Origin: a virus
Length of the DNA stretch: 14,092 nt
UHGV virus genome: UHGV-1666403
Direction: 5' to 3' (one strand)
Shown: positions 1-14,092 of the stretch, in pieces
Layout: each line of letters begins with the position of its first letter
How positions within the stretch are numbered: the first letter of the stretch is position 1
Position numbers and translations under genes: made by a program
Notes under the pieces: generated by a model
The model's input: only the letters and a program-made list of their open reading frames with translations
Told to the model about the DNA's origin: nothing
Databases searched by the model: none

Positions 1-106
1 TTGGTGATTTTGAACTTTTGCTTTGCCACGGAACGGTCTGCGTTGTCGGGAAGATACGTGATCTGATCCTTCAACTCAGCAAAAGTTCGATTTATTCAAC
101 AAAGCC
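1..106. mobile_element. IS903-family (IS5 family) insertion sequence, terminal 106 bp only; body of element lies left of the window
   Basis: Reverse complement of 89..106 is GGCTTTGTTGAATAAATC, the 18-bp terminal inverted repeat I recognise from IS903/Tn903. The whole of 1..106 reads as the IS903 end sequence (revcomp GGCTTTGTTGAATAAATCGAACTTTTGCTGAGTTGAAGGATCAGATCACG...CAAAATCACCAA), about one mismatch from the copy I remember. The same 18-mer recurs at 14039..14056. Boundary is +/-1 bp (a C at 107 could extend the repeat). Confidence 0.8.
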
Positions 107-133
107 CCTCCAGTGCTCCAGATATTGAATGGC

Positions 134-736
134 CTATGCCTCCGGCAGTTCAGGCCAGATGACATCCGGCGCGGTGCTGGTATCTGTTGCCACCACCGCG
201 TCAATGTAATCCAGCACAGCGTTAAGTCTGGTTGTTTCTTCCTGCGTAAGTTTACGTCCGGCCTGTAATTTCAGCTGAATCAGACCGACGGAATTCATTG
301 CTGCATCAATCAGTGACTGGCGTTGGATTTCTGCCGCGTCCACTGCGGCGCTACATTGTGCCTCAGTATCCGTCACCCATTTCTCACCATCCCATTTATC
401 GTATGGTGTTAACGGGGCGATAGTGGTTGTATTTTCGGGGTAATCACCCAGAGATGTGATTTCTTTCGATTCTCCTGTTTCGGTGCTATAGACCGTTTCA
501 CCGCGATGGTCTGACACATATTCCCATGAGTTTAAATCTACCGTTCGGCAGATTGCATAACCAGCTTTGTTTGAGCCAGGAGCATCTAAACAGGAATGCG
601 CCGGAATACCGACACCCACCGCAAGATACTCAGTTGATGTGGATATATATTCCCGCGTTTCTCCGTTGTAGTTATAAACGGTAATGAAGCCGGGTTCCGT
701 GGCAATAAATTCACTGTTTAATTTTGCCTGTGTCAT
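134..736 (-). CDS. G: Tail fiber assembly chaperone (P2 G / lambda Tfa family)
   Basis: 200 aa ORF directly downstream of the tail fiber gene. Contains Tfa-family motifs (DHRGETVY, KWDGEKWVTDTEA, and C-terminal TDTSTAPDVIWPELP resembling lambda Tfa VDTSTAPDIEWP). Start ATG at 736 overlaps the H stop (TAATG). Confidence 0.9.
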   Translation of the reverse strand: MTQAKLNSEFIATEPGFITVYNYNGETREYISTSTEYLAVGVGIPAHSCLDAPGSNKAGYAICRTVDLNSWEYVSDHRGETVYSTETGESKEITSLGDYPENTTTIAPLTPYDKWDGEKWVTDTEAQCSAAVDAAEIQRQSLIDAAMNSVGLIQLKLQAGRKLTQEETTRLNAVLDYIDAVVATDTSTAPDVIWPELPEA

Positions 737-1974
737 TATGCAGCCCTCACAATGTAGTTAAATGCAATGTTGCGGGGGCGCGTTTCATTTCCGCCGGTGT
801 CGTCGGTATCTCTGCCTGCACTGCCGTTAAAATCGTATACAGCACCAGTCCCTCCATCTACAGCCCAGGCTCTAAAAAACGAAAAATTGTGGTGGTGCGC
901 TTTAAATAAATCGGACTGCGCCGAGAGAAGCGCGCGCCCTGCATCCACCCCGCGCCCATCATCCCATCCACGAATAAACTCACCGCGTAAATCAGGTAAT
1001 TTATTTGTTGGATAAGCCTTTGCCAGTTCCGGGTATTCTTCAGCAGAAAATGCCGCACCATTGCATTTCAGCCAGCCTGTTGGAGGAGTGGCTGAAGGCC
1101 ACGGAACAGGTACACCAACGGGTAACGCTGAGCCTTCTCCCAAACCAAGGTATGTGAGAAGACCAGCTACATCCTTTCCACTCAAATGAGTCAGCGTATT
1201 GTCCAGCGGTTGTTTACCTGCCAGCGCATTGTTAATGGTGGTACTGAATTTCGGGTCATTGTTAATGGCTGCGGCAATTTCTTTCAGTGTATCCAGCGTG
1301 GCAGGCGCACCGTTAATCAGAGCGGTAATAGCAGCCTGTACAAACGCAGTGGTCGCAATCCGCGTGGTGTTATTTCCTGCGGCAGGCGTCGGCGCTTTTG
1401 GTTCTCCGGTAAATGTCGGATTATGTTTCTGTGCATACTGGGTATGAGGATCCTGTGCGGCAATGTGGTTTCTCATCTGTTCATCCACATACAGCCTTAA
1501 TTCCAGGACTTCATCATCCACGTATTTACGGGTCGCCAGTACCACCGATGGGTCGATTTTCAGCGTAATAGCTTCGGTATTCGTGACAACCAGAATCATG
1601 CGGATAGTCTGGGTACGACCACTGCCTTCCTGCAACTGCGGTTTGTACGTTTCCGGGCAGTTCGCCACCGCAATGAGTACGCCTTCATCATCATAAAGCC
1701 CAATCTCACGGATCCAGAATCCGCCCTCGTTCTCAGGGATGATTTGCTCCGCAATAATCTGGCTCTGGTTGTTCGGGTCAACACTCAGAAGATTCAGCGG
1801 TGCAATGCGTTTCTGATTAATCAGTTTTGTCTGTGCCGGGTCTGGTGTCGGCAAGACACCATTCGCATCACCAACGGCCATTTGCGTCAGATTCAGCTTA
1901 CTGCCGAGCATCGTCGCGTTAGCCAGCCGTGCCGCGCCCTGATTAGTCAGAATGGCGTAGTATTTCACTGTCAT
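736..1974 (-). CDS. H: Tail fiber protein (P2 H-like N-terminal domain; C-terminal tail-collar-type receptor-binding domain)
   Basis: 412 aa. The N-terminus (TQMAVGDANGVLPTPDPAQT, GGFWIREIGLYDDEGVLIAVANCPETYKPQLQEGSGR) matches the conserved N-terminal domain of P2 gpH-type fibers. The C-terminus (LPDLRGEFIRGWDDGRG...GNETRPRNIAFNYIV) looks like a phage tail collar domain. Position between baseplate I and chaperone G. Start overlaps the I stop (ATGA). Confidence 0.9.
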   Translation of the reverse strand: MTVKYYAILTNQGAARLANATMLGSKLNLTQMAVGDANGVLPTPDPAQTKLINQKRIAPLNLLSVDPNNQSQIIAEQIIPENEGGFWIREIGLYDDEGVLIAVANCPETYKPQLQEGSGRTQTIRMILVVTNTEAITLKIDPSVVLATRKYVDDEVLELRLYVDEQMRNHIAAQDPHTQYAQKHNPTFTGEPKAPTPAAGNNTTRIATTAFVQAAITALINGAPATLDTLKEIAAAINNDPKFSTTINNALAGKQPLDNTLTHLSGKDVAGLLTYLGLGEGSALPVGVPVPWPSATPPTGWLKCNGAAFSAEEYPELAKAYPTNKLPDLRGEFIRGWDDGRGVDAGRALLSAQSDLFKAHHHNFSFFRAWAVDGGTGAVYDFNGSAGRDTDDTGGNETRPRNIAFNYIVRAA

Positions 1975-2582
1975 GCGTTTACTCTCAGGTTATCAATTAA
2001 ATGAATGGCCGAGGCCGGGAAATAATCCCCTCCGACAATAATGGCCTCCGGGGTGTAGGGATAAACCGTCAGGGCGTCGCCGTGATAGCATCCCGCACCG
2101 GCAAAAATGTTGCCGGTTGTACTTAAACTGATAGCCAGTCCCGTCAGATGGCGGCTTGCCGGTTTTGCATCAGCAACGAGGCGCTCCAGCTCCTGATACA
2201 TTTCCTCGGTAATACCCTGCTCAAGCACGCCAACAACGATGCGGAACGTCCCCGGCTCCTCGTTGAGCTGCCACCACTCCCTCACCTCAATCAGATAGCC
2301 GAGCGGCTCCACCACACGCCGGATTGCGCCTATAGTGCCCTTATGGCAGTGAATGAAATACGCATCGCGGATAACAGCGCGTTTTGTCGCTTCCGGCCAC
2401 TTATCATCCCAGCGGTCAACCGAAAATGACCACGCCAGCCACGGCAGCAGATTTGCCGGGCAGGTGTCCGGGTTCCACAGCTTACGAATACTGACCGGCG
2501 TTTTTTCAATTTCCGCACAGGCTTTTGCGGCAGCGACTTCAAGCGGTGATGAGCCGGTCGGCAGCAGTCGCGAATCACTCAT
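1971..2582 (-). CDS. I: Baseplate assembly / tail formation protein (P2 gpI family)
   Basis: 203 aa ORF between J and H with P2 synteny; overlaps the J stop by 8 nt. Start could be an internal Met; I did not resolve this. Confidence 0.8.
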   Translation of the reverse strand: MSDSRLLPTGSSPLEVAAAKACAEIEKTPVSIRKLWNPDTCPANLLPWLAWSFSVDRWDDKWPEATKRAVIRDAYFIHCHKGTIGAIRRVVEPLGYLIEVREWWQLNEEPGTFRIVVGVLEQGITEEMYQELERLVADAKPASRHLTGLAISLSTTGNIFAGAGCYHGDALTVYPYTPEAIIVGGDYFPASAIHLIDNLRVNA

Positions 2583-3483
2583 CCGAGCCTCCGGTCACGA
2601 CGCTGTATTCGGTACAGAAAGACGCCTGCGTATTGTTGAGCACGATGTCGGCCAGCGGTGCAGCCAGTTCGACACGCTGCACGCCTTCCACATGCAAAGC
2701 GGCATAAATGGCAGACAGTCGGATGTCGCGCCCCAGCCGGTGCTGTGCCGTGATATACGCTTCCAGTTTTTTCACGGCGGCAGCGCGAATGGGTTCGCTT
2801 TCGGGGCCAGGATAAAGGTAAAGCGTGGCATTTATCTGGTATTCAACGATGACGGCAGACTGCACGGTCACACGGTCGGCCACCGGTCTGACGTCCTCAC
2901 CATTAAGGGCGTTGCGCACCACCGCCAGCAGGTCTTCGGATGCCACACCGTTATTTTCACGTGACAGCACAGAGATGGTGACGCAGGCCGGAGACGGACT
3001 GGTGACAGAAATATCCGCGACACGCCCGTCGGCACTGCGACCATGATACTGATAGGCTCCCACCGACCCGGCGACGCTTAAGCCCTCAAACGCCTGCTGA
3101 ATACGCAGACGATAATCGGTGTCAGACTCCATCACTGCCGGTGTCGGCGGGATGGTCGAATCATCTGCCGGGGTGATAATCAGGCGCGTGGTGTTGTAAT
3201 TGGCACCAATCACATCAAGGTCATTACCGGCGGCACAGGCCAGCATTACCGCCCGTGCGGCCTCATTCACACGCTGACGCCAGATAAGCTCACGATAAGC
3301 ATTTTCCTCCAGCAGTTTGACGAGAGGCTCGGATTCCAGCGTCAGGGTACGGGCAACCGCCTCCTGCTGGTCTTCCGGGTAAAGGGAAATCAGTGTCGCC
3401 TTGCGTTCGGCAAGAATGGTTTCAAAGTCCAGCTCCTCGACCACATCCGGTGCGGGTAGCTGGTTCAGGTCGATAATCGGCAT
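2575..3483 (-). CDS. J: Baseplate wedge protein (P2 gpJ / T4 gp6-like)
   Basis: 302 aa ORF following W, typical size and position for baseplate J. Confidence 0.88.
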   Translation of the reverse strand: MPIIDLNQLPAPDVVEELDFETILAERKATLISLYPEDQQEAVARTLTLESEPLVKLLEENAYRELIWRQRVNEAARAVMLACAAGNDLDVIGANYNTTRLIITPADDSTIPPTPAVMESDTDYRLRIQQAFEGLSVAGSVGAYQYHGRSADGRVADISVTSPSPACVTISVLSRENNGVASEDLLAVVRNALNGEDVRPVADRVTVQSAVIVEYQINATLYLYPGPESEPIRAAAVKKLEAYITAQHRLGRDIRLSAIYAALHVEGVQRVELAAPLADIVLNNTQASFCTEYSVVTGGSDE

Positions 3484-3487
3484 GGTT

Positions 3488-3835
3488 TCAACTCACAGGG
3501 ATGGTTAACGAAAGTGGCTGGCCGGTGTCGCTGTGCTGGCCGGTTAACGTGACCGTCATTCGCCCGTCAAAACTGCGCTCAGTGGTGACGGATGACAGGG
3601 TGACGCGGGGTTCCCATTTCAGCACCGCCATGTAACAGGCGACCTTAATCTGCAACTCAAGCGCCGGGGTCTGCGGCTGGTCAATCATTGACGCCAGCAA
3701 TGAGCCGTAATCACGACGCATCACCCGTGAGCCGACCGGCGTGCGCAGGATATCGCCGATACTCTGGCTGATATGCTCAAGGTCAGTGACAGTCAGGCCA
3801 TCACTGCGATTCATTCCAAGATAACGCGCTGTCAT
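3488..3835 (-). CDS. W: Baseplate wedge protein (P2 gpW / T4 gp25-like)
   Basis: 115 aa, the size and position of GPW/gp25-family proteins. Start ATG overlaps the V stop (ATGA). Confidence 0.88.
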   Translation of the reverse strand: MTARYLGMNRSDGLTVTDLEHISQSIGDILRTPVGSRVMRRDYGSLLASMIDQPQTPALELQIKVACYMAVLKWEPRVTLSSVTTERSFDGRMTVTLTGQHSDTGQPLSLTIPVS

Positions 3836-4467
3836 AGAGGACTCCCGGTTGTGCCGCCGCTGTCGCCGGGGTGTTTATGGGTATGCAGTACCTTACCGTT
3901 TGATGAGAGTTCACCGCCGGTATGTTTAATGTTGCCGCGCATCGTCCCGCCCTTCTGCACTTCCAGCGTGCCGGTAATCAGTCTGTTGGTGCAGACCACC
4001 TCCGGGGTGTCCAGGGTGATGCGGGTTGACGCTTTCACCATGACCACCGGCACCGTGGCAGTAACAGAATCAGAAGCCGTCACGCTGGCCGTTTTAATTC
4101 CGCTTACCGTGAGTGCACTGGTTTCGGGTTCATACTCAATCACCGCCCCGTCAGGGAAACGGATATGCAGGGCATCCGCCGACGTAGACGGCGCGGGGTT
4201 ATCGCCGGAATAAATCCCCGGCAGAACGAACGCCGTGTCGAGTTCACCGCCCACGGCCAGAATCAGCACCTGTTCCCCCACGGAAGGTGCCCACCATGTG
4301 CGCGAACGTCCGGCGCGATGGGTCAGCCACTGAAGCCAGTCGGTGCACATGCCGCCGGTCTGCACACGGCAGCGACCGGCGTTAAGGTCGGTTTCGACGA
4401 TAATGCCGGTGCGGATCATGTTGCGCAGTGCGCGCGCGAGTTCCTGAATATTTGCGAGAGTGTTCAT
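3832..4467 (-). CDS. V: Baseplate central spike/hub protein (P2 gpV)
   Basis: 211 aa, first gene after the S-V intergenic gap. C-terminal His-rich tip (KVLHTHKHPGDSGG) resembles the metal-binding apex of gpV-type spikes. Confidence 0.88.
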   Translation of the reverse strand: MNTLANIQELARALRNMIRTGIIVETDLNAGRCRVQTGGMCTDWLQWLTHRAGRSRTWWAPSVGEQVLILAVGGELDTAFVLPGIYSGDNPAPSTSADALHIRFPDGAVIEYEPETSALTVSGIKTASVTASDSVTATVPVVMVKASTRITLDTPEVVCTNRLITGTLEVQKGGTMRGNIKHTGGELSSNGKVLHTHKHPGDSGGTTGSPL

Positions 4468-4533
4468 AACGGGAAGGATGCCGCCGGGTCATACCGGCGG
4501 CAATGTGCCGATGAGGTGTCGGGAATGGCACAA
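4468..4533 (-). promoter_or_regulatory. Putative internal late promoter region (by position analogous to P2 P_V) with a GC-rich hairpin
   Basis: The only substantial intergenic gap (66 bp) in the tail operon. Perfect 8-bp inverted repeat GCCGCCGG (4480..4487) / CCGGCGGC (4494..4501) with a 6-nt loop. A TGT-N10-ACA dyad at 4517..4532 abuts the S stop. No -10/-35 assignment made. Confidence 0.3.
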
Positions 4534-4986
4534 CTAACGGTCGAGGTGAGCCAGGATAATCTCTTCAATCATCTGCACATCCTCACCGGTAAAGCCGAGC
4601 AGAGGACGCGCCGGATAATCAATTTTCTTACCGTCTTTCCGGTTTTCTTCCGACAGACCGAACTGATGCACACTGGCGATTTTCGGCGACTTCCCGCCGT
4701 AAAACTCCATTGATGCCTGCTCCGGGCTGGCGCGGATATGCAAAAAACGACTGGTGATAAGTTTCGCAAACATTTTTCGCTTAACGCGACCGGTCTTTTT
4801 TCTGGCGCTCTGCTGCTGGCGTGGCACGTAGGGTGTGCCGTCCGGGGCTTTCTGTGCCATCACCCGACGCTGCTGACTCTGCCGCAGACGTTTCGCCAGT
4901 TCGGCACTCAGTCGTCGACGCCCTGACGGTGACAGCGACTCAATCAGTCCGGTCAGCCGGTCTTCAAAACGCTTAAACTCATTCAT
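4534..4986 (-). CDS. S: Tail completion / virion morphogenesis protein (P2 gpS family)
   Basis: 150 aa ORF downstream of R (8-nt overlap), with P2 synteny. Basic central region. Confidence 0.8.
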   Translation of the reverse strand: MNEFKRFEDRLTGLIESLSPSGRRRLSAELAKRLRQSQQRRVMAQKAPDGTPYVPRQQQSARKKTGRVKRKMFAKLITSRFLHIRASPEQASMEFYGGKSPKIASVHQFGLSEENRKDGKKIDYPARPLLGFTGEDVQMIEEIILAHLDR

Positions 4987-5446
4987 CCCACTTGCTCACC
5001 AGTTCGCCATTGATATAAAGCTCCATCGGGCGGGTGACCGGCTCCGGCGGCGTGGGTTCCGGGATATTCTTCACATGCAGCGCGCCGTCCACCTCACTGA
5101 CCAGCGTGCGCTCGGTCAGCATCAGGCTGATGCTGATATCAAAGCTGCTGTCATTGTTGATGTCTGCATAAAACGTGAAGCCCTTTTTCTGACCTTCGTC
5201 AGTGGTCATGATGTCGGGCTGATTTTCCCGCAGCCACGCCAGCACCGGCACGATGAGCAGGTCAAAATCACCGGTAAAGTCGGTCACAATCACATTGAGC
5301 GTGTAACGCTTTTCGAACGACAGCGACGTCGCCAGCGTGGAGGCAATACTCCCGTTATCCACGAATATCCGAAGCATCTCTGGACTGGTTTTCAGCACCG
5401 TGACGGCATCAGTCAGCGCCCTGCGCAGGCTGTCGGGTTTGAGCAT
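4979..5446 (-). CDS. R: Tail completion protein (P2 gpR family)
   Basis: 155 aa ORF immediately after the lysis cassette, with P2 synteny. Start at 5446 lies inside the 3' end of lysC. Confidence 0.8.
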   Translation of the reverse strand: MLKPDSLRRALTDAVTVLKTSPEMLRIFVDNGSIASTLATSLSFEKRYTLNVIVTDFTGDFDLLIVPVLAWLRENQPDIMTTDEGQKKGFTFYADINNDSSFDISISLMLTERTLVSEVDGALHVKNIPEPTPPEPVTRPMELYINGELVSKWDE

Positions 5447-5699
5447 CGTTTTCGTCCTGACAGTGTTTAATCATTTTTACCTGGCTGGCACAGCGTGCCA
5501 GCGCGTTCTCAAGCTGCCGGATATCAGCACTTAAATCGCCGTTCGTCTCCGGGTCACTGCCCGGCATCGGGCAAAGGCTCACTTTCGGGCAGGCGTTGGC
5601 GACAATCACTGGCGTCGGTGCAGGCCGGGCGCTGGTGCAACCGGCGCACAGCATCAGGCAGGTCAGCACCGTACCAGCGGCGAAAATCTTCGTTTTCAT
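5409..5699 (-). CDS. lysC: Outer-membrane spanin lipoprotein (o-spanin; P2 LysC / Rz1-like)
   Basis: 96 aa. N-terminal signal peptide with a lipobox-like LMLCAGC followed by a Pro-rich mature region. Starts in an alternate frame inside lysB (GAGG 9 nt upstream of the ATG at 5699) and extends beyond it. Confidence 0.8.
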   Translation of the reverse strand: MKTKIFAAGTVLTCLMLCAGCTSARPAPTPVIVANACPKVSLCPMPGSDPETNGDLSADIRQLENALARCASQVKMIKHCQDENDAQTRQPAQGAD

Positions 5700-5979
5700 T
5701 CAGTAACCTCGTGATGGTTTTCTCGCGCTGTGCTTCACGCTTCGCGGCGTTTTCCAGCTCCTGACGCAGTGCCACCTGCGCCAGCTCGTTTTTGTCTGCC
5801 CTGGTGAGGGCAACATGAAGCTGATTTTTCAGCATGGTGATGGTCGTCTGCTGCCCGCTGGCGACGTTATTCGCCCTGTCCAGCGAGGCGCGCAGGCTGG
5901 CATTTTTGTGTTTCACCAGAAACAGACCGGACACCGCCAGCGATAACAACACGACCAGCACAATCATCAGCTTTGACAT
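5554..5979 (-). CDS. lysB: Inner-membrane spanin (i-spanin; P2 LysB / Rz-like)
   Basis: 141 aa. N-terminal transmembrane anchor (LMIVLVVLLSLAVSGLFLV) followed by a charged, coiled-coil-like periplasmic domain. Contains the lysC start. Confidence 0.82.
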   Translation of the reverse strand: MSKLMIVLVVLLSLAVSGLFLVKHKNASLRASLDRANNVASGQQTTITMLKNQLHVALTRADKNELAQVALRQELENAAKREAQREKTITRLLNENEDFRRWYGADLPDAVRRLHQRPACTDASDCRQRLPESEPLPDAGQ

Positions 5980-6392
5980 GGTTCCCGCCCCTCAAAACGC
6001 TGACGGCAGGCCGTGCGTATCAGCCGGAAAAACAGTGACGCCACGAGATAAATCAGCGCGGTAAAAATCCATCCGGCGGCGACCAGCGAGATAAATGTCG
6101 CCACCATCACCACCAGAGCCGCCGCCCGTCTGCGCCACGGCACCGGCTGCAAAAACAGCGACGTGACAATCTTCACGGCCAGCGATTCCGGCGGCAGCTC
6201 CCGCCCGTAGCGTTCCAGCACATACTCCGTGGCATACACGCCGACACCACCGGCAACCACACAGATAACCGTCGCCAGAATCGCCCAGGCAGCGACAAAA
6301 CTGACGGCCACGCTCTGCGGGTAAATCAGGGACAGTGCCAGCATCAGCGCCAGCGACACGTTCAGCATCAGTGAAAGGGATAATTTCTTCAT
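5967..6392 (-). CDS. lysA: Lysis timing/regulatory membrane protein (P2 LysA-like)
   Basis: 141 aa, strongly hydrophobic with several predicted transmembrane helices, placed between the endolysin and the spanins as in P2. Confidence 0.75.
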   Translation of the reverse strand: MKKLSLSLMLNVSLALMLALSLIYPQSVAVSFVAAWAILATVICVVAGGVGVYATEYVLERYGRELPPESLAVKIVTSLFLQPVPWRRRAAALVVMVATFISLVAAGWIFTALIYLVASLFFRLIRTACRQRFEGREPCQS

Positions 6393-6406
6393 GGTGTTTA
6401 CTCCGT

Positions 6407-6904
6407 TTAAGCCGGTACGCCGCCAGCGGTACGCCAGACGGTGACCAGTTTTTCCAGTGAATGCTCACGCTGACCGTAACCGGCACCCGGCAGGGACGCC
6501 CAGATATTGCGACAGCGTGAAATGGCGCGCTCAATGCGTCCCGCCCGGATGTCATCCAGTGCACCGCGTTCGCGGATCAACTGAATGGCAAGTCTGTCCT
6601 GTGACAACGGACTGAAATCCGGCAGGGCAAGCTGTTTGCGGTAATGCGGCCAGAACAGGTAAAGCTGCTGATAGCGACCGGAGGCCGTGGATTTTTCACC
6701 GCGACGGTTAAACACCTTCGCCGGTCGGCCATGTGCGAACGGGTGGTCACTGTAGTCGGTGAAAATTTCCGGCTTCCCGTCCAGTCCGGTGACTATCACG
6801 TCATAGCCCCGGTTTTTCGTCAGCGGATGGTTTGCCGTCCCTTCGGACACGGCCAGCATGTCGAGAAAGGCGGCGATATTCTGATGCGTGTTAATAACCG
6901 GCAT
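6407..6904 (-). CDS. K: Endolysin (lambda R-like lytic transglycosylase / phage lysozyme family; P2 K)
   Basis: 165 aa with close motif matches to lambda R: FLDMLAVSEGT (catalytic Glu), GYDVIV, FTDYSDHP, GRYQ, DFSP, RCRNIWASLPGAGYGQ. Start overlaps the holin stop (TAATG). Confidence 0.93.
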   Translation of the reverse strand: MPVINTHQNIAAFLDMLAVSEGTANHPLTKNRGYDVIVTGLDGKPEIFTDYSDHPFAHGRPAKVFNRRGEKSTASGRYQQLYLFWPHYRKQLALPDFSPLSQDRLAIQLIRERGALDDIRAGRIERAISRCRNIWASLPGAGYGQREHSLEKLVTVWRTAGGVPA

Positions 6905-7185
6905 TACGGTTTCCCCCTGCCCTTAAAGCGGCGCTGAATGGCAATCTCAATCACCTGATAACCGGCGATACCCAGCATGGAGCCGATACCGCACACCGCA
7001 GGCAGTGACAGGTCAGGAAACTGCACCAGAACAACACCGGCAACCATCGAGACAAAACCACCGAGCAACATGCGCCCGATAAACAGACGCGGGGTGATGG
7101 GTTCACCACCGGCAAGCACCTTGCCGACAACAATCAGCACCCCAATCATGAAAAGCGACAGGACGCTTTTTTCTTCTGCTGTCAT
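6904..7185 (-). CDS. Y: Holin (P2 Y)
   Basis: 93 aa with hydrophobic transmembrane segments and a charged C-terminus (RRFKGRGKP), immediately upstream of the endolysin. Confidence 0.85.
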   Translation of the reverse strand: MTAEEKSVLSLFMIGVLIVVGKVLAGGEPITPRLFIGRMLLGGFVSMVAGVVLVQFPDLSLPAVCGIGSMLGIAGYQVIEIAIQRRFKGRGKP

Positions 7186-7188
7186 GCG

Positions 7189-7392
7189 TTACTCCCACAG
7201 ATTGACAGTTTCAGCCACGGGCGCGGTCTGAACGTCGGGCAGTTCGACGGCGGTGCCGTGTGGCAGCACCGCACCCAGTTCAGCCAGTCCCGGATTTGCG
7301 GCGAGCACGGTCTCAACCACGCCCTCAGTGCGCCCGTAATACCGGACACAAATGGCGTCGAGCGTGTCGCCCTGTAGCGCAAAGGTCTTCAT
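7189..7392 (-). CDS. X: Tail protein X (LysM-like; P2 gpX)
   Basis: 67 aa from the internal ATG at 7392 (MKTFALQGDTLDAICVRYYG... LysM-like motif). This ATG overlaps the L stop (ATGA). The longer 90-aa ORF in the track would run into L and is rejected. Confidence 0.85.
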   Translation of the reverse strand: MKTFALQGDTLDAICVRYYGRTEGVVETVLAANPGLAELGAVLPHGTAVELPDVQTAPVAETVNLWE

Positions 7393-7901
7393 CAGATTTG
7401 ACTCACGATGCAGCGCGGCTTGTCCTGGATGCGCGCCACTGCCCAGCGCATATCCCGCCACAGCTCATCAATGGTGCTGTCAATGCTGTCGGCCTTCTTG
7501 TCGCCTTTCGCACTGGCATCCACACCGCGATAACGTTCATAAAGCGACGCGGTCGCCATCGCACACACGGCGCGCTCGTAGTAAAAAACTTTGATGCTTT
7601 CACCGTCGATGTCGTCCGCCGGGACGTCCGCCAGACGCGTAAAACCGGCGGCAATTTTCTGTTCGCGGTACTCGTACAGCTCCGCATTCGTCTCCGCCAT
7701 GCCTGACTTGATGGCCTCACGCAGACGGGCGGGGGCGACGGTCTGCTCAAGGCGCATACGTTCCCGGACGCGCTTCGGGTCGATATCGGGAAAAAAGAAC
7801 GTGTTTTTAATCACCGGCTCGTCGCCTGCCGGTTGCGGGATGACCACCGTACCCTCACCGGACACGGGAGCCTCCTTTCGCGGAATAATCAGCGTCATCA
7901 T
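7392..7901 (-). CDS. L: Head completion/stabilization protein (P2 gpL)
   Basis: 169 aa from the ATG at 7901 (MMTLIIPRKE...), which has a GAGG Shine-Dalgarno 6 nt upstream. The ORF-track start at 7961 lacks a comparable ribosome-binding site. Confidence 0.85.
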   Translation of the reverse strand: MMTLIIPRKEAPVSGEGTVVIPQPAGDEPVIKNTFFFPDIDPKRVRERMRLEQTVAPARLREAIKSGMAETNAELYEYREQKIAAGFTRLADVPADDIDGESIKVFYYERAVCAMATASLYERYRGVDASAKGDKKADSIDSTIDELWRDMRWAVARIQDKPRCIVSQI

Positions 7902-8000
7902 GACTACCTCTGAAAAGTCGGGCGGTGGACGCCGGTGCAGTGTCAGGTGATTCACCCTCACTGACCGGCGTGCCGCCCTGGCGCGGGGCGCATTCGGTTG

Positions 8001-8738
8001 TTAACTGGCTTTCTTTTTCGGGCGTCCACGTTTTGCCGGGGGCGCACTCCGGGTCTTACGCGGGGCGCGGGTGACCGCTTTTGGCTCCGGCTTCGGTTTC
8101 AGCTCCCGCTCCAGTCGTTCAATCTCTTTTTTGACGCCTGCCTGACAGTCGAGCTGTGTCGCACGTTGCAGATGCGCCAGCGCCCCTGCGGCATCACCAG
8201 CGTCACGCAGAAACAGACCGGTGATTTTGTGCAGCTTTGCGCGCACTTCATCAGGCATGTCAGCCGTGGCGGTCAGTTCAAGGGTCTCCGTCAGCAGGCG
8301 GGTATCCACAGACTCACCGGCAGCGTGAGCGCGCATGGCCGCAAGCGCGACCTCCTCGGTGAACATGTACGGCGGGGTACGGCGGTGTTTACCCGGCATG
8401 GTCAGACCGTACTTCAGGGCATAACGGGCAATCTCCAGCGCACCGGCAATATCGCCGGTATCCAGACGCCACAGCATGACCGTCATCAGAATGTCATCCT
8501 GTGCACCTTTGCCCTGCTCCAGCACGCCGTTCACCCACGACAACCAGAACGGCAGCAGTTCGCGTTTTTTCGCGGCCTTCAGCTCTTTTGAATAAATCGC
8601 TTTCAGTGTGCGCTGGTCTGCGGCGAGCTTAACCAGCATCTGCTCATAGACAGTTGCATGTCGCAGCGGGGCGGCTTCCCGCTGCGCGGTCATCGCTGCC
8701 GAGACCCGCATCATGTGGCGCTGTGCGGGACTCGTCAT
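8001..8738 (-). CDS. M: Terminase small (endonuclease) subunit (P2 gpM)
   Basis: 245 aa with P2 synteny between N and L. Strongly basic C-terminal tail (RAPRKTRSAPPAKRGRPKKKAS). Confidence 0.88.
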   Translation of the reverse strand: MTSPAQRHMMRVSAAMTAQREAAPLRHATVYEQMLVKLAADQRTLKAIYSKELKAAKKRELLPFWLSWVNGVLEQGKGAQDDILMTVMLWRLDTGDIAGALEIARYALKYGLTMPGKHRRTPPYMFTEEVALAAMRAHAAGESVDTRLLTETLELTATADMPDEVRAKLHKITGLFLRDAGDAAGALAHLQRATQLDCQAGVKKEIERLERELKPKPEPKAVTRAPRKTRSAPPAKRGRPKKKAS

Positions 8739-8741
8739 CGG

Positions 8742-9815
8742 TTACGCTCCCGGCTCTGCGGTCGCTTTAGCCAGTGTGGAGAAATCACCGACCTTAATTT
8801 TTTCCACCAGACAACCGGCGGCGTAGTCTTCCACCACGTAATCAATGTTCATTGACTCGTAGTTCTCCACGCGGTCGAGTTTCGGGTTTTCCTCAATCAC
8901 GCGGCGATGGCTGTCATCCATGTAGTAGATGGACAGGTTTTCCAGCTTTGTGATGAGCATCGCATCCGCCGGGAAGTACGGGACGCGTACCGCCGGCAGG
9001 TTACCGATGCGTTTCTGGCTGATGATGACGTCAGCGGCCAGCATTTCGCTGTTGTCCTGCTCCTTGTTGACGATGGGAAAATACTTGTCCGCCAGTAGCT
9101 GACGTCCCACAATCACCACAAGGTCAGGGTCTTCCTGATACCACGGCTCAATCAGGTTGTTGGTCGCATCCATCACCAGTGCGTCAAGGCTGGCATAATC
9201 ACCGCCCTTACCCACGCGGATAACCTCAGAGGTGGTGTGCCCTTCCTCGTCAGTGACCTTGCTCATCACGCGCGCCGGTGCTTCATTGCGGTATTTCTGC
9301 AGCCAGCCGACCGCCACATCCTGTAGCATCGGATTACTGCTGCGGTCAGAGGTTTCGGCACGCCTCACGCCGTTAAAACCGGCCATGATGAAATCAAGGG
9401 ACTGGCGTTTGATAATGGCGTTACGGACACGGAGCTGGAAATCCTGATAACGCGCCCACAGGTCAAGCGTTTTGTAGCGGATATAAAAATCGAAGTTAAT
9501 CTGGTCGCATTCGTACTTGTTTGACGCCAGCTTCGAGAAGTCCTTCGGCTGACGCTCGGTGCCACCGGCGGTGTCGCTGGTGCTGGCGATGGAGCCGGTG
9601 ACACCAATACCAATTTTTTCCCCTTTCATTTCGCTGACCGGCACAATGTTGATGCGGGTCAGAAAGTCAGAGGACTCCTGCATGGTGTTCATCAGGGTCT
9701 GGGTGACCGACGGTTCAACGGTGAATTTTTTCGACACATCACCGGCGTCGATGCCGTTCAGTTCGGCAACACGGGACAGGTAGGCATTAAATTTAAAGCG
9801 GGTTTCCTGGCGCAT
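8742..9815 (-). CDS. N: Major capsid protein (P2 gpN)
   Basis: 357 aa, the longest head ORF, directly after the scaffold gene. AGGA ribosome-binding site 8 nt upstream of the ATG at 9815. Confidence 0.93.
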   Translation of the reverse strand: MRQETRFKFNAYLSRVAELNGIDAGDVSKKFTVEPSVTQTLMNTMQESSDFLTRINIVPVSEMKGEKIGIGVTGSIASTSDTAGGTERQPKDFSKLASNKYECDQINFDFYIRYKTLDLWARYQDFQLRVRNAIIKRQSLDFIMAGFNGVRRAETSDRSSNPMLQDVAVGWLQKYRNEAPARVMSKVTDEEGHTTSEVIRVGKGGDYASLDALVMDATNNLIEPWYQEDPDLVVIVGRQLLADKYFPIVNKEQDNSEMLAADVIISQKRIGNLPAVRVPYFPADAMLITKLENLSIYYMDDSHRRVIEENPKLDRVENYESMNIDYVVEDYAAGCLVEKIKVGDFSTLAKATAEPGA

Positions 9816-9873
9816 AGTTTTTCCTGAAATTAAGGGTTAATCGTGAAGGTTTTCCCGGACTGACTGACGCCGG

Positions 9874-10728
9874 TTAGCAGTTCGTCATCAGGGCGTCACC
9901 GCCACCGCCGGTGGCTTTACTGCGGCGCTGCTGGGTCAGACTTTCGGTGTGGTCGAGACTGTTTTTCAGGCGGGTGAATGCCTGACTGGTTTCATCCGCC
10001 CTGTCAGTCACATCCTGCTTAAGTGCGGAAAAGGCGGTTTCCATCTCAGCAAGGCGCTGCTCAGTGGCGCTCAGTTTTTCCTGCACATGCTCAGCGACAG
10101 CGGTCACCGCTTCATGCACGTCATTCAGACGGGCGTCATCGCTGGCCTGTTTGCGGCCAAAAATGGATTTCACCTTTTCGGTCAGGGCTGTGAACACGGT
10201 TTCAGGCAGGTCTTCAAATTCCAGCTCAACAGGCGTTGCCACTGAAATCAGGTTTTCAGGGCTTAATTTGAAGCGGTTCAGGGGGTTGTGTTTTGCCGTG
10301 CGGCAGAATTCCAGGTATTCCGTGCCGAGGCTTGCCGGGTCATCGGTGACGGCCAGACCCACCAGATAACATTTGCCGGTATTGGCAAAGTTCGGCTGAA
10401 TTTCCATTGAGGTATAGACCTTCTGCGCGGCCTTGTTCATCGCGATAAGGTCATCGGTCGGGGTGATTTTCGCAAACAGCGCCCATTTGCCTTTCAGCGC
10501 CGAATCGTCGTCAATCTTTTCGGCCTTCAGTTCGGCCACATCACCATAACGTTTAAAAATACCGTCAGGCAGGATGCCGCGCAGATGTTCCAGGTTAATG
10601 CGGCAACCATAGACTCGCGGGTCAAAGGTTTCGGCCATTTCCTGAATATCCTGCGCACTGATGACACGCCCGTCACAGGTGTCACCCTCAACGCCGATAC
10701 GAAAGAATTTTGAGACTTTTTTTGCCAT
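9874..10728 (-). CDS. O: Capsid scaffolding protein (P2 gpO)
   Basis: 284 aa from the ATG at 10728 (MAKKVSKFFRIGVEGD...). C-terminal coiled-coil-like, Ala/Glu-rich region. First gene of the leftward head operon. The ORF-track 5' extension to 10794 is rejected. Confidence 0.9.
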   Translation of the reverse strand: MAKKVSKFFRIGVEGDTCDGRVISAQDIQEMAETFDPRVYGCRINLEHLRGILPDGIFKRYGDVAELKAEKIDDDSALKGKWALFAKITPTDDLIAMNKAAQKVYTSMEIQPNFANTGKCYLVGLAVTDDPASLGTEYLEFCRTAKHNPLNRFKLSPENLISVATPVELEFEDLPETVFTALTEKVKSIFGRKQASDDARLNDVHEAVTAVAEHVQEKLSATEQRLAEMETAFSALKQDVTDRADETSQAFTRLKNSLDHTESLTQQRRSKATGGGGDALMTNC

Positions 10729-10901
10729 TGTCAGGAGTCCTGAATAGTGATTAGAGGAGTCACATGTCGGCATCAGTTTCCCGACGATGCGCATCCTCCG
10801 CCATCAGTCCCGGATGGCTTATCACTGACACAACAGCACCTTAGCGAATCGCGGGGCGCGACTAAGTAGCCTTGCCGTGTATTCATCACGGCGAGGTATT
10901 C
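10729..10901. promoter_or_regulatory. Divergent control region between the O...head/lysis operon and the P-Q operon; presumed late promoters
   Basis: 173-bp non-coding gap between divergent starts. Dyad GTCGG-N10-CCGAC at 10766..10785 and perfect dyad CCGTG-N7-CACGG at 10875..10891 just upstream of the P ribosome-binding site (GAGG 10893..10896). Promoter hexamers not assigned. Confidence 0.5.
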
Positions 10902-12674
10902 ATGACCATCACCACAGACACCACTCTTTTACACGACCCGCGTCGTCAGGCGGCGCTGCTGTACTGGCAGGGGTTTTCCGTGCCGCAGATTGCCGCCATG
11001 TTGAAGATGAAACGCCCGACGGTGCAGAGCTGGAAACAGCGCGACGGCTGGGACAGTGTTGCCCCCATCAGCCGTGTCGAAATGAGTCTGGAAGCGCGGC
11101 TGACCCAGCTCATCATCAAACCGCAGAAAACCGGCGGTGACTTCAAGGAAATTGACCTGCTGGGACGCCAGATTGAACGACTGGCACGGGTTAACCGTTA
11201 CAGTCAGACCGGCAACGAGGCAGACCTTAATCCGAACGTCGCTAACCGCAACAAAGGCGGGCGGCGCAAACCGAAAAAGAATTTTTTCAGTGACGAGGCC
11301 ATCGAAAAGCTGGAGCAGATTTTCTTTGAGCAGTCTTTCGAATATCAGTTGCACTGGTATCGCGCCGGGCTTGAGCACCGCATCCGCGATATCCTGAAAT
11401 CCCGCCAGATTGGCGCGACGTTTTATTTTTCCCGCGAGGCGCTGCTGCGCGCCCTGAAAACCGGCCATAACCAGATTTTTCTGTCGGCCAGTAAAACGCA
11501 GGCGTATGTGTTCCGTGAATACATCATCGCCTTTGCCCGTCTGGTTGACGTTGACCTGACCGGTGACCCGATTGTCCTGGGCAATAACGGCGCAAAACTG
11601 ATTTTTCTCGGCACCAACTCCAATACCGCGCAGAGCCATAACGGCGACCTGTACGTCGACGAGATTTTCTGGATCCCGAATTTTCAGGTACTGCGTAAGG
11701 TGGCATCAGGTATGGCCTCACAGAGCCACCTGCGCTCGACCTATTTCTCCACCCCGTCCACGCTGGCGCACGACGCCTACCCGTTCTGGTCGGGTGAACT
11801 GTTCAACCGGGGACGCGCCAGCGCCGCCGAACGCGTGGAAATCGACGTCAGTCATAACGCCCTTGCCGGAGGTCTTCTCTGTGCGGACGGCCAGTGGCGA
11901 CAGATTGTCACCATTGAGGACGCCCTGAAAGGCGGCTGCACGCTGTTCGACATTGAGCAGCTCAAACGCGAAAACAGCGCCGACGATTTTAAAAACCTGT
12001 TCATGTGTGAATTTGTTGACGACAAGGCGTCGGTGTTCCCGTTCGAGGAGCTGCAACGCTGCATGGTCGACACGCTGGAAGAATGGGAAGACTATGCGCC
12101 GTTTGCCGCCAATCCGTTCGGCTCCCGCCCGGTATGGATTGGTTACGACCCGTCACACCGTGGCGACAGCGCCGGATGCGTGGTGCTGGCACCGCCGGTG
12201 GTGGCCGGAGGTAAATTCAGAATACTTGAGCGTCACCAGTGGAAAGGCATGGACTTTGCCACTCAGGCGGAATCCATCCGCAAACTCACCGAAAAATACA
12301 ACGTCGAATACATCGGAATTGATGCCACCGGCCTCGGTGTCGGCGTGTTCCAGCTCGTGCGCTCGTTCTATCCCGCCGCGCGCGACATCCGCTACACGCC
12401 GGAAATGAAAACCGCAATGGTGCTCAAGGCCAAAGACGTTATCCGCCGTGGCTGTCTGGAATATGACGTCAGCGCCACCGACATCACCAGCTCGTTTATG
12501 GCTATCCGCAAGACCATGACCAGCAGCGGACGCAGTGCCACCTATGAGGCCAGCCGCAGCGAGGAAGCCAGCCACGCCGACCTCGCCTGGGCGACCATGC
12601 ACGCCCTGTTAAATGAGCCACTCACCGCCGGTATCAGCACCCCGCTGACATCCACCATTCTGGAGTTTTACTGA
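10902..12674 (+). CDS. P: Terminase large (ATPase) subunit (P2 gpP)
   Basis: 590 aa from the ATG at 10902, with GAGG 5 nt upstream. Divergent from O and co-oriented with the portal, as in P2. The TTG-initiated 600-aa version in the track is rejected. Confidence 0.92.
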   Translation: MTITTDTTLLHDPRRQAALLYWQGFSVPQIAAMLKMKRPTVQSWKQRDGWDSVAPISRVEMSLEARLTQLIIKPQKTGGDFKEIDLLGRQIERLARVNRYSQTGNEADLNPNVANRNKGGRRKPKKNFFSDEAIEKLEQIFFEQSFEYQLHWYRAGLEHRIRDILKSRQIGATFYFSREALLRALKTGHNQIFLSASKTQAYVFREYIIAFARLVDVDLTGDPIVLGNNGAKLIFLGTNSNTAQSHNGDLYVDEIFWIPNFQVLRKVASGMASQSHLRSTYFSTPSTLAHDAYPFWSGELFNRGRASAAERVEIDVSHNALAGGLLCADGQWRQIVTIEDALKGGCTLFDIEQLKRENSADDFKNLFMCEFVDDKASVFPFEELQRCMVDTLEEWEDYAPFAANPFGSRPVWIGYDPSHRGDSAGCVVLAPPVVAGGKFRILERHQWKGMDFATQAESIRKLTEKYNVEYIGIDATGLGVGVFQLVRSFYPAARDIRYTPEMKTAMVLKAKDVIRRGCLEYDVSATDITSSFMAIRKTMTSSGRSATYEASRSEEASHADLAWATMHALLNEPLTAGISTPLTSTILEFY

Positions 12675-13708
12675 TGAGCAAGAAAAAAGGGAAAACACCG
12701 CAACCTGCGGCCAAAAAAATGACCGCCAGCGCCCCGAAAATGGAAGCATTCACCTTTGGCGAGCCGGTACCGGTACTCGACCGCCGTGACATTCTGGATT
12801 ACGTCGAGTGCATCAGTAACGGCAGATGGTATGAACCACCGGTCAGCTTTACCGGTCTGGCAAAAAGCCTGCGTGCTGCCGTGCATCACAGCTCACCGAT
12901 TTACGTCAAACGTAATATTCTGGCCTCAACATTTATCCCGCATCCGTGGCTTTCCCAGCAGGATTTCAGCCGCTTTGTGCTGGATTTTCTGGTGTTCGGT
13001 AATGCGTTTCTGGAAAAGCGTTACAGCACCACCGGTAAGGTCATCAGACTGGAAACCTCACCGGCAAAATATACCCGTCGTGGCGTGGAGGAGGATGTTT
13101 ACTGGTGGGTGCCGTCCTTCAACGAGCCGACACCTTTCACGCCCGGCTCCGTGTTTCACCTGCTGGAGCCGGATATCAATCAGGAGCTGTACGGCCTGCC
13201 AGAATATCTGAGCGCCCTTAACTCTGCCTGGCTGAATGAGTCGGCCACGCTGTTCCGCCGCAAGTATTACGAAAACGGCGCTCATGCCGGATATATCATG
13301 TACGTCACCGATGCCGTGCAGGACCGCAACGATATCGAAATGCTTCGCGAAAACATGGTTAAGTCGAAAGGCCGCAACAACTTTAAAAATCTGTTTCTCT
13401 ATGCCCCGCAGGGGAAAGCTGACGGCATTAAAATTATCCCGCTCAGTGAAGTGGCAACGAAGGACGATTTTTTTAATATCAAAAAAGCCAGCGCCGCTGA
13501 CCTGCTGGACGCGCACCGCATCCCCTTTCAGTTGATGGGCGGCAAGCCGGAGAACGTCGGGTCACTGGGCGATATTGAGAAAGTGGCAAAGGTCTTTGTC
13601 CGCAATGAGCTTATCCCGTTACAGGACAGGATTCGGGAAATAAACGGCTGGCTCGGTCAGGAGGTCATCCGCTTTAAAAACTACTCACTGGACACTGACA
13701 ACGGCTGA
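12674..13708 (+). CDS. Q: Portal (capsid portal vertex) protein (P2 gpQ)
   Basis: 344 aa. ATG at 12674 overlaps the P stop (TGATG). Followed by a terminator and the cos site, as at the P2 left end. Confidence 0.92.
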   Translation: MSKKKGKTPQPAAKKMTASAPKMEAFTFGEPVPVLDRRDILDYVECISNGRWYEPPVSFTGLAKSLRAAVHHSSPIYVKRNILASTFIPHPWLSQQDFSRFVLDFLVFGNAFLEKRYSTTGKVIRLETSPAKYTRRGVEEDVYWWVPSFNEPTPFTPGSVFHLLEPDINQELYGLPEYLSALNSAWLNESATLFRRKYYENGAHAGYIMYVTDAVQDRNDIEMLRENMVKSKGRNNFKNLFLYAPQGKADGIKIIPLSEVATKDDFFNIKKASAADLLDAHRIPFQLMGGKPENVGSLGDIEKVAKVFVRNELIPLQDRIREINGWLGQEVIRFKNYSLDTDNG

Positions 13709-13713
13709 ACATC

Positions 13714-13736
13714 GCCGCCTGCGGGCGGCTTTTTTA
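13714..13736 (+). terminator. Rho-independent terminator downstream of Q
   Basis: Perfect GC stem GCCGCC (13714..13719), loop TGCG, GGCGGC (13724..13729), followed immediately by TTTTTT (13730..13735), 6 nt after the Q stop. Confidence 0.65.
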
Positions 13737-13877
13737 CACCCCGTCATCACGCCCTCACACGCTCACCACAGCACAAAACATCCCGCAAACACACCAACAC
13801 CCCAACGGGCAGACTAAACGCCGCCACGACGCGCTCAGACGCTGAAAAAATAAAATCAGCACCACCGCCAGCGCGCA

Positions 13878-13896
13878 GTGCTTTCCCCGCCTCGCC
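13878..13896 (-). other. cos site: P2-type 19-nt cohesive end sequence
   Basis: 13878..13896 is GTGCTTTCCCCGCCTCGCC, whose reverse complement GGCGAGGCGGGGAAAGCAC is the cohesive-end sequence I recall for P2. It sits about 170 bp beyond the Q stop, as at the P2 left end. Confidence 0.7.
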
Positions 13897-14038
13897 CGCC
13901 CGCTTCATGGGTCGGTTTGAATGCAGTTGAATTACAACTACCAAACCAAGCAATCCCTACTATTACGCAGAAAATGCATACTGAAATACCTCGTGCAAAT
14001 TGATGCAGCTAAGTATGCATAGGTTTTATGCCTCAACG

Positions 14039-14092
14039 GGCTTTGTTGAATAAATCAGATTTCGGGTAAGTCTCCCCCGTAGCGGGTTGTGT
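14039..14092. mobile_element. IS903-family (IS5 family) insertion sequence, first 54 bp only; body of element lies right of the window
   Basis: 14039..14056 is GGCTTTGTTGAATAAATC (the same 18-bp terminal repeat as at 89..106, in inverted orientation), followed by AGATTTCGGGTAAGTCTCCCCCGTAGCGGGTTGTGT, which I recognise as the opposite IS903 terminus. Confidence 0.8.

Follow-up and report, generated by a model that had tools for sequence, protein, structure and literature searches.

IS903-group ends bound a P2-like late-gene contig that most likely derives from a complete prophage

Several described systems resemble a block of phage genes held between two insertion sequences. In the composite transposons Tn903 and Tn602, two IS903-group elements flank a DNA segment, and Tn602 is bordered by 9-bp duplications (PMC9282650). 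The element IS903B itself (IS5 family, IS903 group) is characterized by an 18-bp terminal repeat, a length of 1057 bp, an IS5-family DDE transposase and a 9-bp target duplication. Where such duplications are absent, this has been ascribed to recombination between IS copies or to adjacent deletions, the latter being common for IS903 (PMC11708052). Repeat-induced breaks of short-read contigs produce IS-bounded sequences of yet another kind. A natural counterpart is the P2-like prophage of Escherichia coli EC9952, which has the same late-gene order at ~97% identity and an IS903B copy in the cos-adjacent variable region. This copy (L001 26978-28034) is an independent insertion with its own 9-bp duplication, TCGTTTGGG; it differs from the locus studied here in insertion site and neighbouring cargo gene, and the EC9952 prophage has kept the invertase and the alternative fibre genes, while an ISEc12 element interrupts its invertible fibre segment.

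Here, we analyzed a stretch of viral DNA of 14,092 nucleotides (UHGV-1666403), referred to as the window. We propose that the window is most likely an entire short-read contig from a non-E. coli enterobacterium, namely the part of a complete P2-like prophage enclosed by two IS903-group elements, and that the IS pair is incidental; we assign this reading a probability of about 0.9. The features are compiled in Table 1. The 13.9 kb between the IS ends represent a P2-type late region with ~97% identity to numerous P2-like phages and prophages. The genes followed the P2 late-gene order Q P / O N M L X Y K lysA lysB R S V W J I H G, and a cos site was present as well: the window contained the 19-mer GGCGAGGCGGGGAAAGCAC, which we take to be the P2 cohesive-end sequence, at a distance of 142 bp from the right IS. 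P2-like late regions ~97% identical to the window were also found in three E. coli records of 66-216 kb (NZ_CP018956.1, NZ_CP146689.1 and NZ_CP104682.1), which are presumably plasmids.

Table 1. Coordinates of features in the window and sequences expected to adjoin it
Feature	Position	Strand	Remarks
IRL end (transposase-proximal) of the left IS903-group element	1..106	-	18-bp terminal repeat at 89-106; body outside window
Left-element transposase ORF	start 74 (TTG, 322-aa call) or 29 (GTG, 307-aa call)		leftward, exits window
Nine bases flanking the left IS	107..115		CCTCCAGTG; no matching duplication on the far side of the element
Cassette junction			AAAGCC/CCTCCAGTGCTCCAG
Tail-fibre assembly gene (tfa, P2 G equivalent)	134..736	-	Pfam Caudo_TAP
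P2-type late genes	736..13708		ORF list, ~97% identity to annotated P2-like prophages/phages, Pfam families
H, I, J, W, V, S, R, lysis genes, X, L, M, N, O	H at 736-1974	-	
P	10902-12674	+	
Q	12674-13708	+	
P2 cohesive-end (cos) 19-mer	13878..13896	-	reverse complement of GGCGAGGCGGGGAAAGCAC; exact match
Target site of the right IS	14030..14038		GCCTCAACG; one copy of the 9-bp target duplication
IRR end (transposase 3' side) of IS903B, first 54 bases	14039..14092	+	terminal repeat at 14039-14056; body outside window
DNA past the left IS			expected to begin TTGGCCTGTCCACGC, upstream of sheath gene FI
DNA past the right IS			expected to begin GCCTCAACGTATACG (DUF7380 gene) or to be the acyltransferase

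Both edges of the window were identified as IS903-group termini. The 18-bp IS903 terminal repeat GGCTTTGTTGAATAAATC occurred exactly twice, once at each edge and on opposite strands; none of 200 shuffles contained a match, so that practically no copies would arise by chance. The last 54 nucleotides were identical (54/54) to the start of the complete 1057-bp IS903B copies in the relatives L023, L024 and L026, and 53/54 positions agreed with the E. coli EC9952 copy annotated as 'IS5-like element IS903B family transposase'. Positions 1-106 matched the opposite (IRL) end of the same EC9952 copy at 100%. Both element bodies are directed outward from the window and the two ends share their orientation; in the relatives, the transposase genes of both elements lie on the window's minus strand and the elements are thus in direct orientation. 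An earlier note on this DNA had recognized an IS903-family terminus at the window end, oriented like the left one, and had pointed out that the 9-bp inner flanks differ (CCTCCAGTG on the left, GCCTCAACG on the right); both observations were confirmed. Its description of two directly repeated IS copies was correct in that two distinct IS903-family elements lie in direct orientation. However, these are not copies of one IS, as the left and right elements differed at 105-111 of 1057 positions and are thus only 89-90% identical.

To look beyond the window, we searched for relatives by exact-protein look-ups with tail-fibre protein H and terminase P, which are both lineage-specific; the portal protein was dropped as a query, its exact sequence being present in 4538 blocks. 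The DNA beyond the two window ends was inferred from the clonal relatives found in this way rather than read from the window's own genome. L007 and L010 were 100% identical to window positions 1-11974, L026 and L027 were 100% identical to positions 902-14092, and L008/L023 (one 130-kb contig) as well as L009/L024 (a 5.09-Mb chromosome) showed 99.96-99.99% identity. In all relatives that cross an IS (L007, L008/L023, L009/L024, L025, L026 and L027; 99.85-100% identical to the window) the remainder of the prophage was present and in order. Past the left IS (L007, L008, L009), we found the sheath gene FI, the tube gene FII, E, the tape-measure gene T, U, D and ogr, after which the phage end (~900 bp) leads to the host gene fieF. 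Past the right IS, a 610-aa DUF7380 gene was followed by replication gene A, small early genes, cox, C and int (L023). Neither the DUF7380 protein nor the acyltransferase described below was assigned to an NCBIfam family. As L008 and L023 belong to a single contig, one genome displays the whole ~31-kb prophage with both ISs inside.

The relatives also gave an indication of the host. The fieF gene of the clone shared 79.8% nucleotide and 89% amino-acid identity with E. coli fieF (L007 19680-21239). Because of this low nucleotide identity, we concluded that E. coli is not the host of this clone. The 900 bp that follow ogr, consisting of a 213-aa gene and 122 bp, showed 100% identity to prophages that occupy this cpxP-fieF site in E. 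coli. Near-identical phage DNA therefore occurs in different genera despite the divergence of fieF.

The right element could be examined in full in the relatives. In L023, it was a 1057-bp IS903B with GCCTCAACG on both sides, i.e., with a perfect 9-bp duplication. E. coli 30EVA1 has the corresponding empty site, ...GCCTCAACG/TATACGTT, in its P2-like prophage, directly downstream of the same cargo gene. By convention, IS copies are regarded as isoforms at 95% nucleotide identity. With 7 to 30 differences from the annotated EC9952 IS903B over 1057 positions (97-99% identity), the right element qualifies as an IS903B isoform, and it agrees with IS903B in terminal repeat, length, transposase type and target duplication. 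In the relatives, both complete elements encoded a 322-aa protein matching NF033579 at ~351 bits (cut-off 140) and Pfam DDE_Tnp_1, and each carried 18-bp terminal repeats at both ends. Judged by its sequence, the right IS is a plain IS903B transposition into a probably dispensable region between cos and the DUF7380 cargo gene.

The same site can be occupied by a larger insertion. In L024, L025 and L026, it held two IS903B copies in direct orientation, (a) and (b), with an acyltransferase gene between them (L024 13138-16593). In L024, this composite was flanked by GCCTCAACG at both ends, and its copies (a) and (b) differed at 27 positions. The acyltransferase belongs to the Acyl_transf_3 family, and the IS903B-acyltransferase-IS903B module was also detected at an unrelated chromosomal site of E. 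coli WCHEC050613 (L029 7944-11399), there without a duplication. A 99.8% identical acyltransferase was present beside a glf/glycosyltransferase cluster on small plasmids (L030 5826-6821). The last ~83 bp of the acyltransferase segment (L024 about 15453-15536), just before IS903B(b), were 93-95% identical to IS30-adjacent sequence in many E. coli genomes, and the L026 contig ended at this ~83-bp IS30-associated fragment.

The left element turned out to be of a different make-up. It was complete in L007, L008 and L009, which are identical to the window in this part, and there measured 1056 bp and encoded an uninterrupted IS5-family transposase of 322 aa (L007 11869-12924). Unlike IS903B, to which it was only 89% identical overall (116 differences), it lacked a target duplication and fell below the isoform convention. 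The differences were unevenly distributed: none occurred in the first 235 bp on the tfa side, after which the divergence from IS903B rose to ~13%. The remaining ~820 bp represent another IS903-group type, which shares ~87% identity with IS903B; copies labelled 'IS5 family' and matching it at 98% occur at many sites in E. coli. Conversely, when the element was compared with L032, a copy of this other type, 14 of the 18 differences were located within the first 300 bp. The left IS is thus a hybrid of two IS903-group types.

Its flanks were in agreement with a deletion. In L007, L008 and L009, the element was bordered by CCTCCAGTG next to tfa and by TTGGCCTGT at its far end. On the tfa side, the flank falls within the 3' end of the alternative tail-fibre assembly gene, for which an empty site was present at ~12000 in L002, the intact P2-like prophage of strain 30EVA1, while the far flank corresponded to the last 85 bp (3' remnant) of the invertase gene of intact relatives. 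Compared with these, ~1.9 kb of the invertible tail-fibre segment, including the invertase and alternative fibre genes, were missing at the left IS. The IS-mediated deletion considered in the earlier note therefore fits the left element, with its ~1.9 kb of missing DNA and lack of a target duplication, and this element alone. Because of the hybrid make-up, homologous recombination of one IS copy with another is the most likely origin of the left IS and is preferred here to a transpositional adjacent deletion. It resembles known IS copies without target duplication in the essentials, and its hybrid origin together with the adjacent deletion would account for the missing duplication.

The sequence next to the left IS might reflect a further exchange. 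SfV-like prophages shared a cassette comprising the IS end, tfa and the fibre tip (the C-terminus of H, to about 1151), down to the exact IS junction. This junction, the IS end followed by CCTCCAGTG..., recurred in the SfV-like prophages of three E. coli genomes (L003/L004/L005 19955-21105) and in one metagenome contig (L006 11562-12661). An exact search for the left junction gave no match among viral and genome contigs and a single match among metagenome contigs, namely L006, which carries an SfV-like prophage and not the window's prophage. From window position 52 to about 600 (~550 bp, IS end and tfa), L006 was identical to the window, while L003 was 93.6% identical over window positions 1-1151. 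For comparison, tfa was only 85-86% identical to that of the P2-like prophages L001 and L002, and P2-like homology resumed only at ~932 in H. The SfV-like prophages concerned have a Mu-type tail, reside at tRNA-Arg and carry gtr genes; the IS in them likewise lacks a target duplication. Independent insertion into a hot spot was rejected as the sole cause of the shared junction, given that the adjacent tfa was identical over ~500 bp in L006; for the more divergent L003-L005, such insertions may conceivably have occurred. A tentative explanation, which we consider possible but rather doubtful, is that a cassette of fibre tip, tfa and IS903B end might pass between the unrelated P2-like and SfV-like prophage types. 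On the basis of the sequence comparison, the left junction would then be the footprint of an IS-assisted exchange of a host-range module, with crossovers in the fibre gene (932-1151) and inside the IS, 235 bp from its end.

With both elements characterized, other explanations of the IS-bounded window could be weighed. Taken by itself, the window contains nothing past either IS, and the left IS without target duplication marks a real deletion of ~1.9 kb. Such features would be expected if IS-mediated deletions had left the structural module of a prophage alone, as the earlier note had considered. However, FI-FII-E-T-U-D-ogr after the left IS and DUF7380-A-...-cox-C-int after the right IS were present in genomes 99.96-100% identical to the window, so that a remnant reduced to the structural module is very unlikely. 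The earlier note had itself named an intact prophage continuing past both IS copies as the observation that would overturn its proposal, and this is what the clonal relatives contain. The window ends are, furthermore, opposite IS termini in the same orientation, as a single copy would give if it resided on a circle, either a phage-plasmid or an excised molecule, that the assembler had cut open inside the IS, and one IS903B in EC9952 indeed matches both window ends. Yet the flanking 9-mers differ and, in the clonal relatives, the far end of the left element reads GGCTTTGTTGAATAAATAAGATTTCTTGCG... and is unlike window positions 14039-14092, in line with the 105-111 differing positions between the two elements. 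A split circle is thus almost certainly wrong, as the earlier note had argued from the flanks.

A further possibility is that the two elements and the 13.9-kb late-gene block move, or once moved, as a unit in the manner of a composite transposon. The IS903-group elements that flank the block have indeed kept their terminal repeats and transposases intact, and IS903-type composites are real, as exemplified by the IS903B-acyltransferase-IS903B module with a 9-bp duplication that L024 carries next to the block. The outer flanks, however, are different (ACAGGCCAA outside the left IS, GCCTCAACG outside the right one), and the right IS has its own duplication and was therefore inserted alone. Moreover, the genes on either side form the contiguous remainder of one prophage in normal P2 order. 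Every contig carrying the IS-block-IS unit showed this same prophage context. An exact scan for the right junction gave no match in complete E. coli genomes or in viral, genome-representative and metagenome contig collections, and the far-left junction was absent from complete E. coli genomes. Neither a shared outer target duplication nor the same unit at more than one genomic location was thus found. The resemblance to Tn903 and Tn602 ends with the two flanking elements: no outer duplication is shared, the element types differ and were inserted or recombined separately, and the 'cargo' is the middle of a prophage for which no second location is known. We thus regard a composite transposon as extremely unlikely, and the suggestion in the earlier note that the module might be mobilizable as a unit did not hold: the outer flanks, the separate duplication of the right IS and junctions seen in no other context all speak against it.

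The preferred reading, a stretch of a complete prophage delimited by the assembler, has to account for the exact positions of the window ends. The right IS903B would have transposed into a non-essential region between cos and the DUF7380 gene, generating the 9-bp duplication. The left hybrid, just downstream of tfa, would have resulted from recombination of two IS903-group elements, and the same event would have removed the invertase and the alternative fibre half. To the left, the prophage would go on with tail genes and ogr and, to the right, with the genes for replication, immunity and the integrase, to a total of ~31 kb; all of these genes were read in the clonal relatives. An assembler unable to pass either IS903-group repeat would then end the contig there. 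Comparable ends were observed in other short-read contigs of the clone: a k141 contig reaches ~140 nt and a Logan contig 30 nt into these IS termini, the depth varying with the assembler used, as is typical of repeat-induced breaks. The SPAdes metagenome contig L006 ends 55 nt into the IS terminus. In the window, an A/G SNP that distinguishes IS copies lies at position 56, which leaves exactly 55 nt between it and the left edge, and the right edge includes 54 nt of the right IS. These ends fit a de Bruijn assembler with an inferred k of 55, provided that another IS903B copy in the source genome is also preceded by G. The model has the A variant unique in the source genome, so that the single-IS form of the right insertion is weakly favoured over the acyltransferase composite. 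Two Logan contigs, L028 (window 1231-14068) and L012 (window 623-6983), are interrupted within the fibre or assembly gene and not at an IS. This hints at a second copy of the fibre-tip cassette in these genomes, perhaps in an SfV-like prophage.

All parts of the locus belong to well-known categories, i.e., IS903B and its relatives, recombination between IS copies, P2-like prophages that tolerate cos-adjacent insertions, and contig breaks at repeats. The case calls for caution with IS-bounded contigs: they can resemble a transposon or a truncated element, yet the present one is most likely the assembler-resolvable piece of an intact prophage, and labels such as 'incomplete prophage' or 'mobilizable module' would mislead annotators. 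The underlying biology is routine, comprising an IS903B insertion beside cos and a probable IS-IS recombination that removed the tail-fibre invertase; loss of the invertase in this way would lock the tail fibre in one orientation. Exchange of tail-fibre genes between unrelated phages has long been known, and the use of an IS as a homology arm would possibly add only a mildly new angle. If the proposed passage of the cassette between prophage types is true, IS903-group elements would serve as portable homology arms for tail-fibre swapping.
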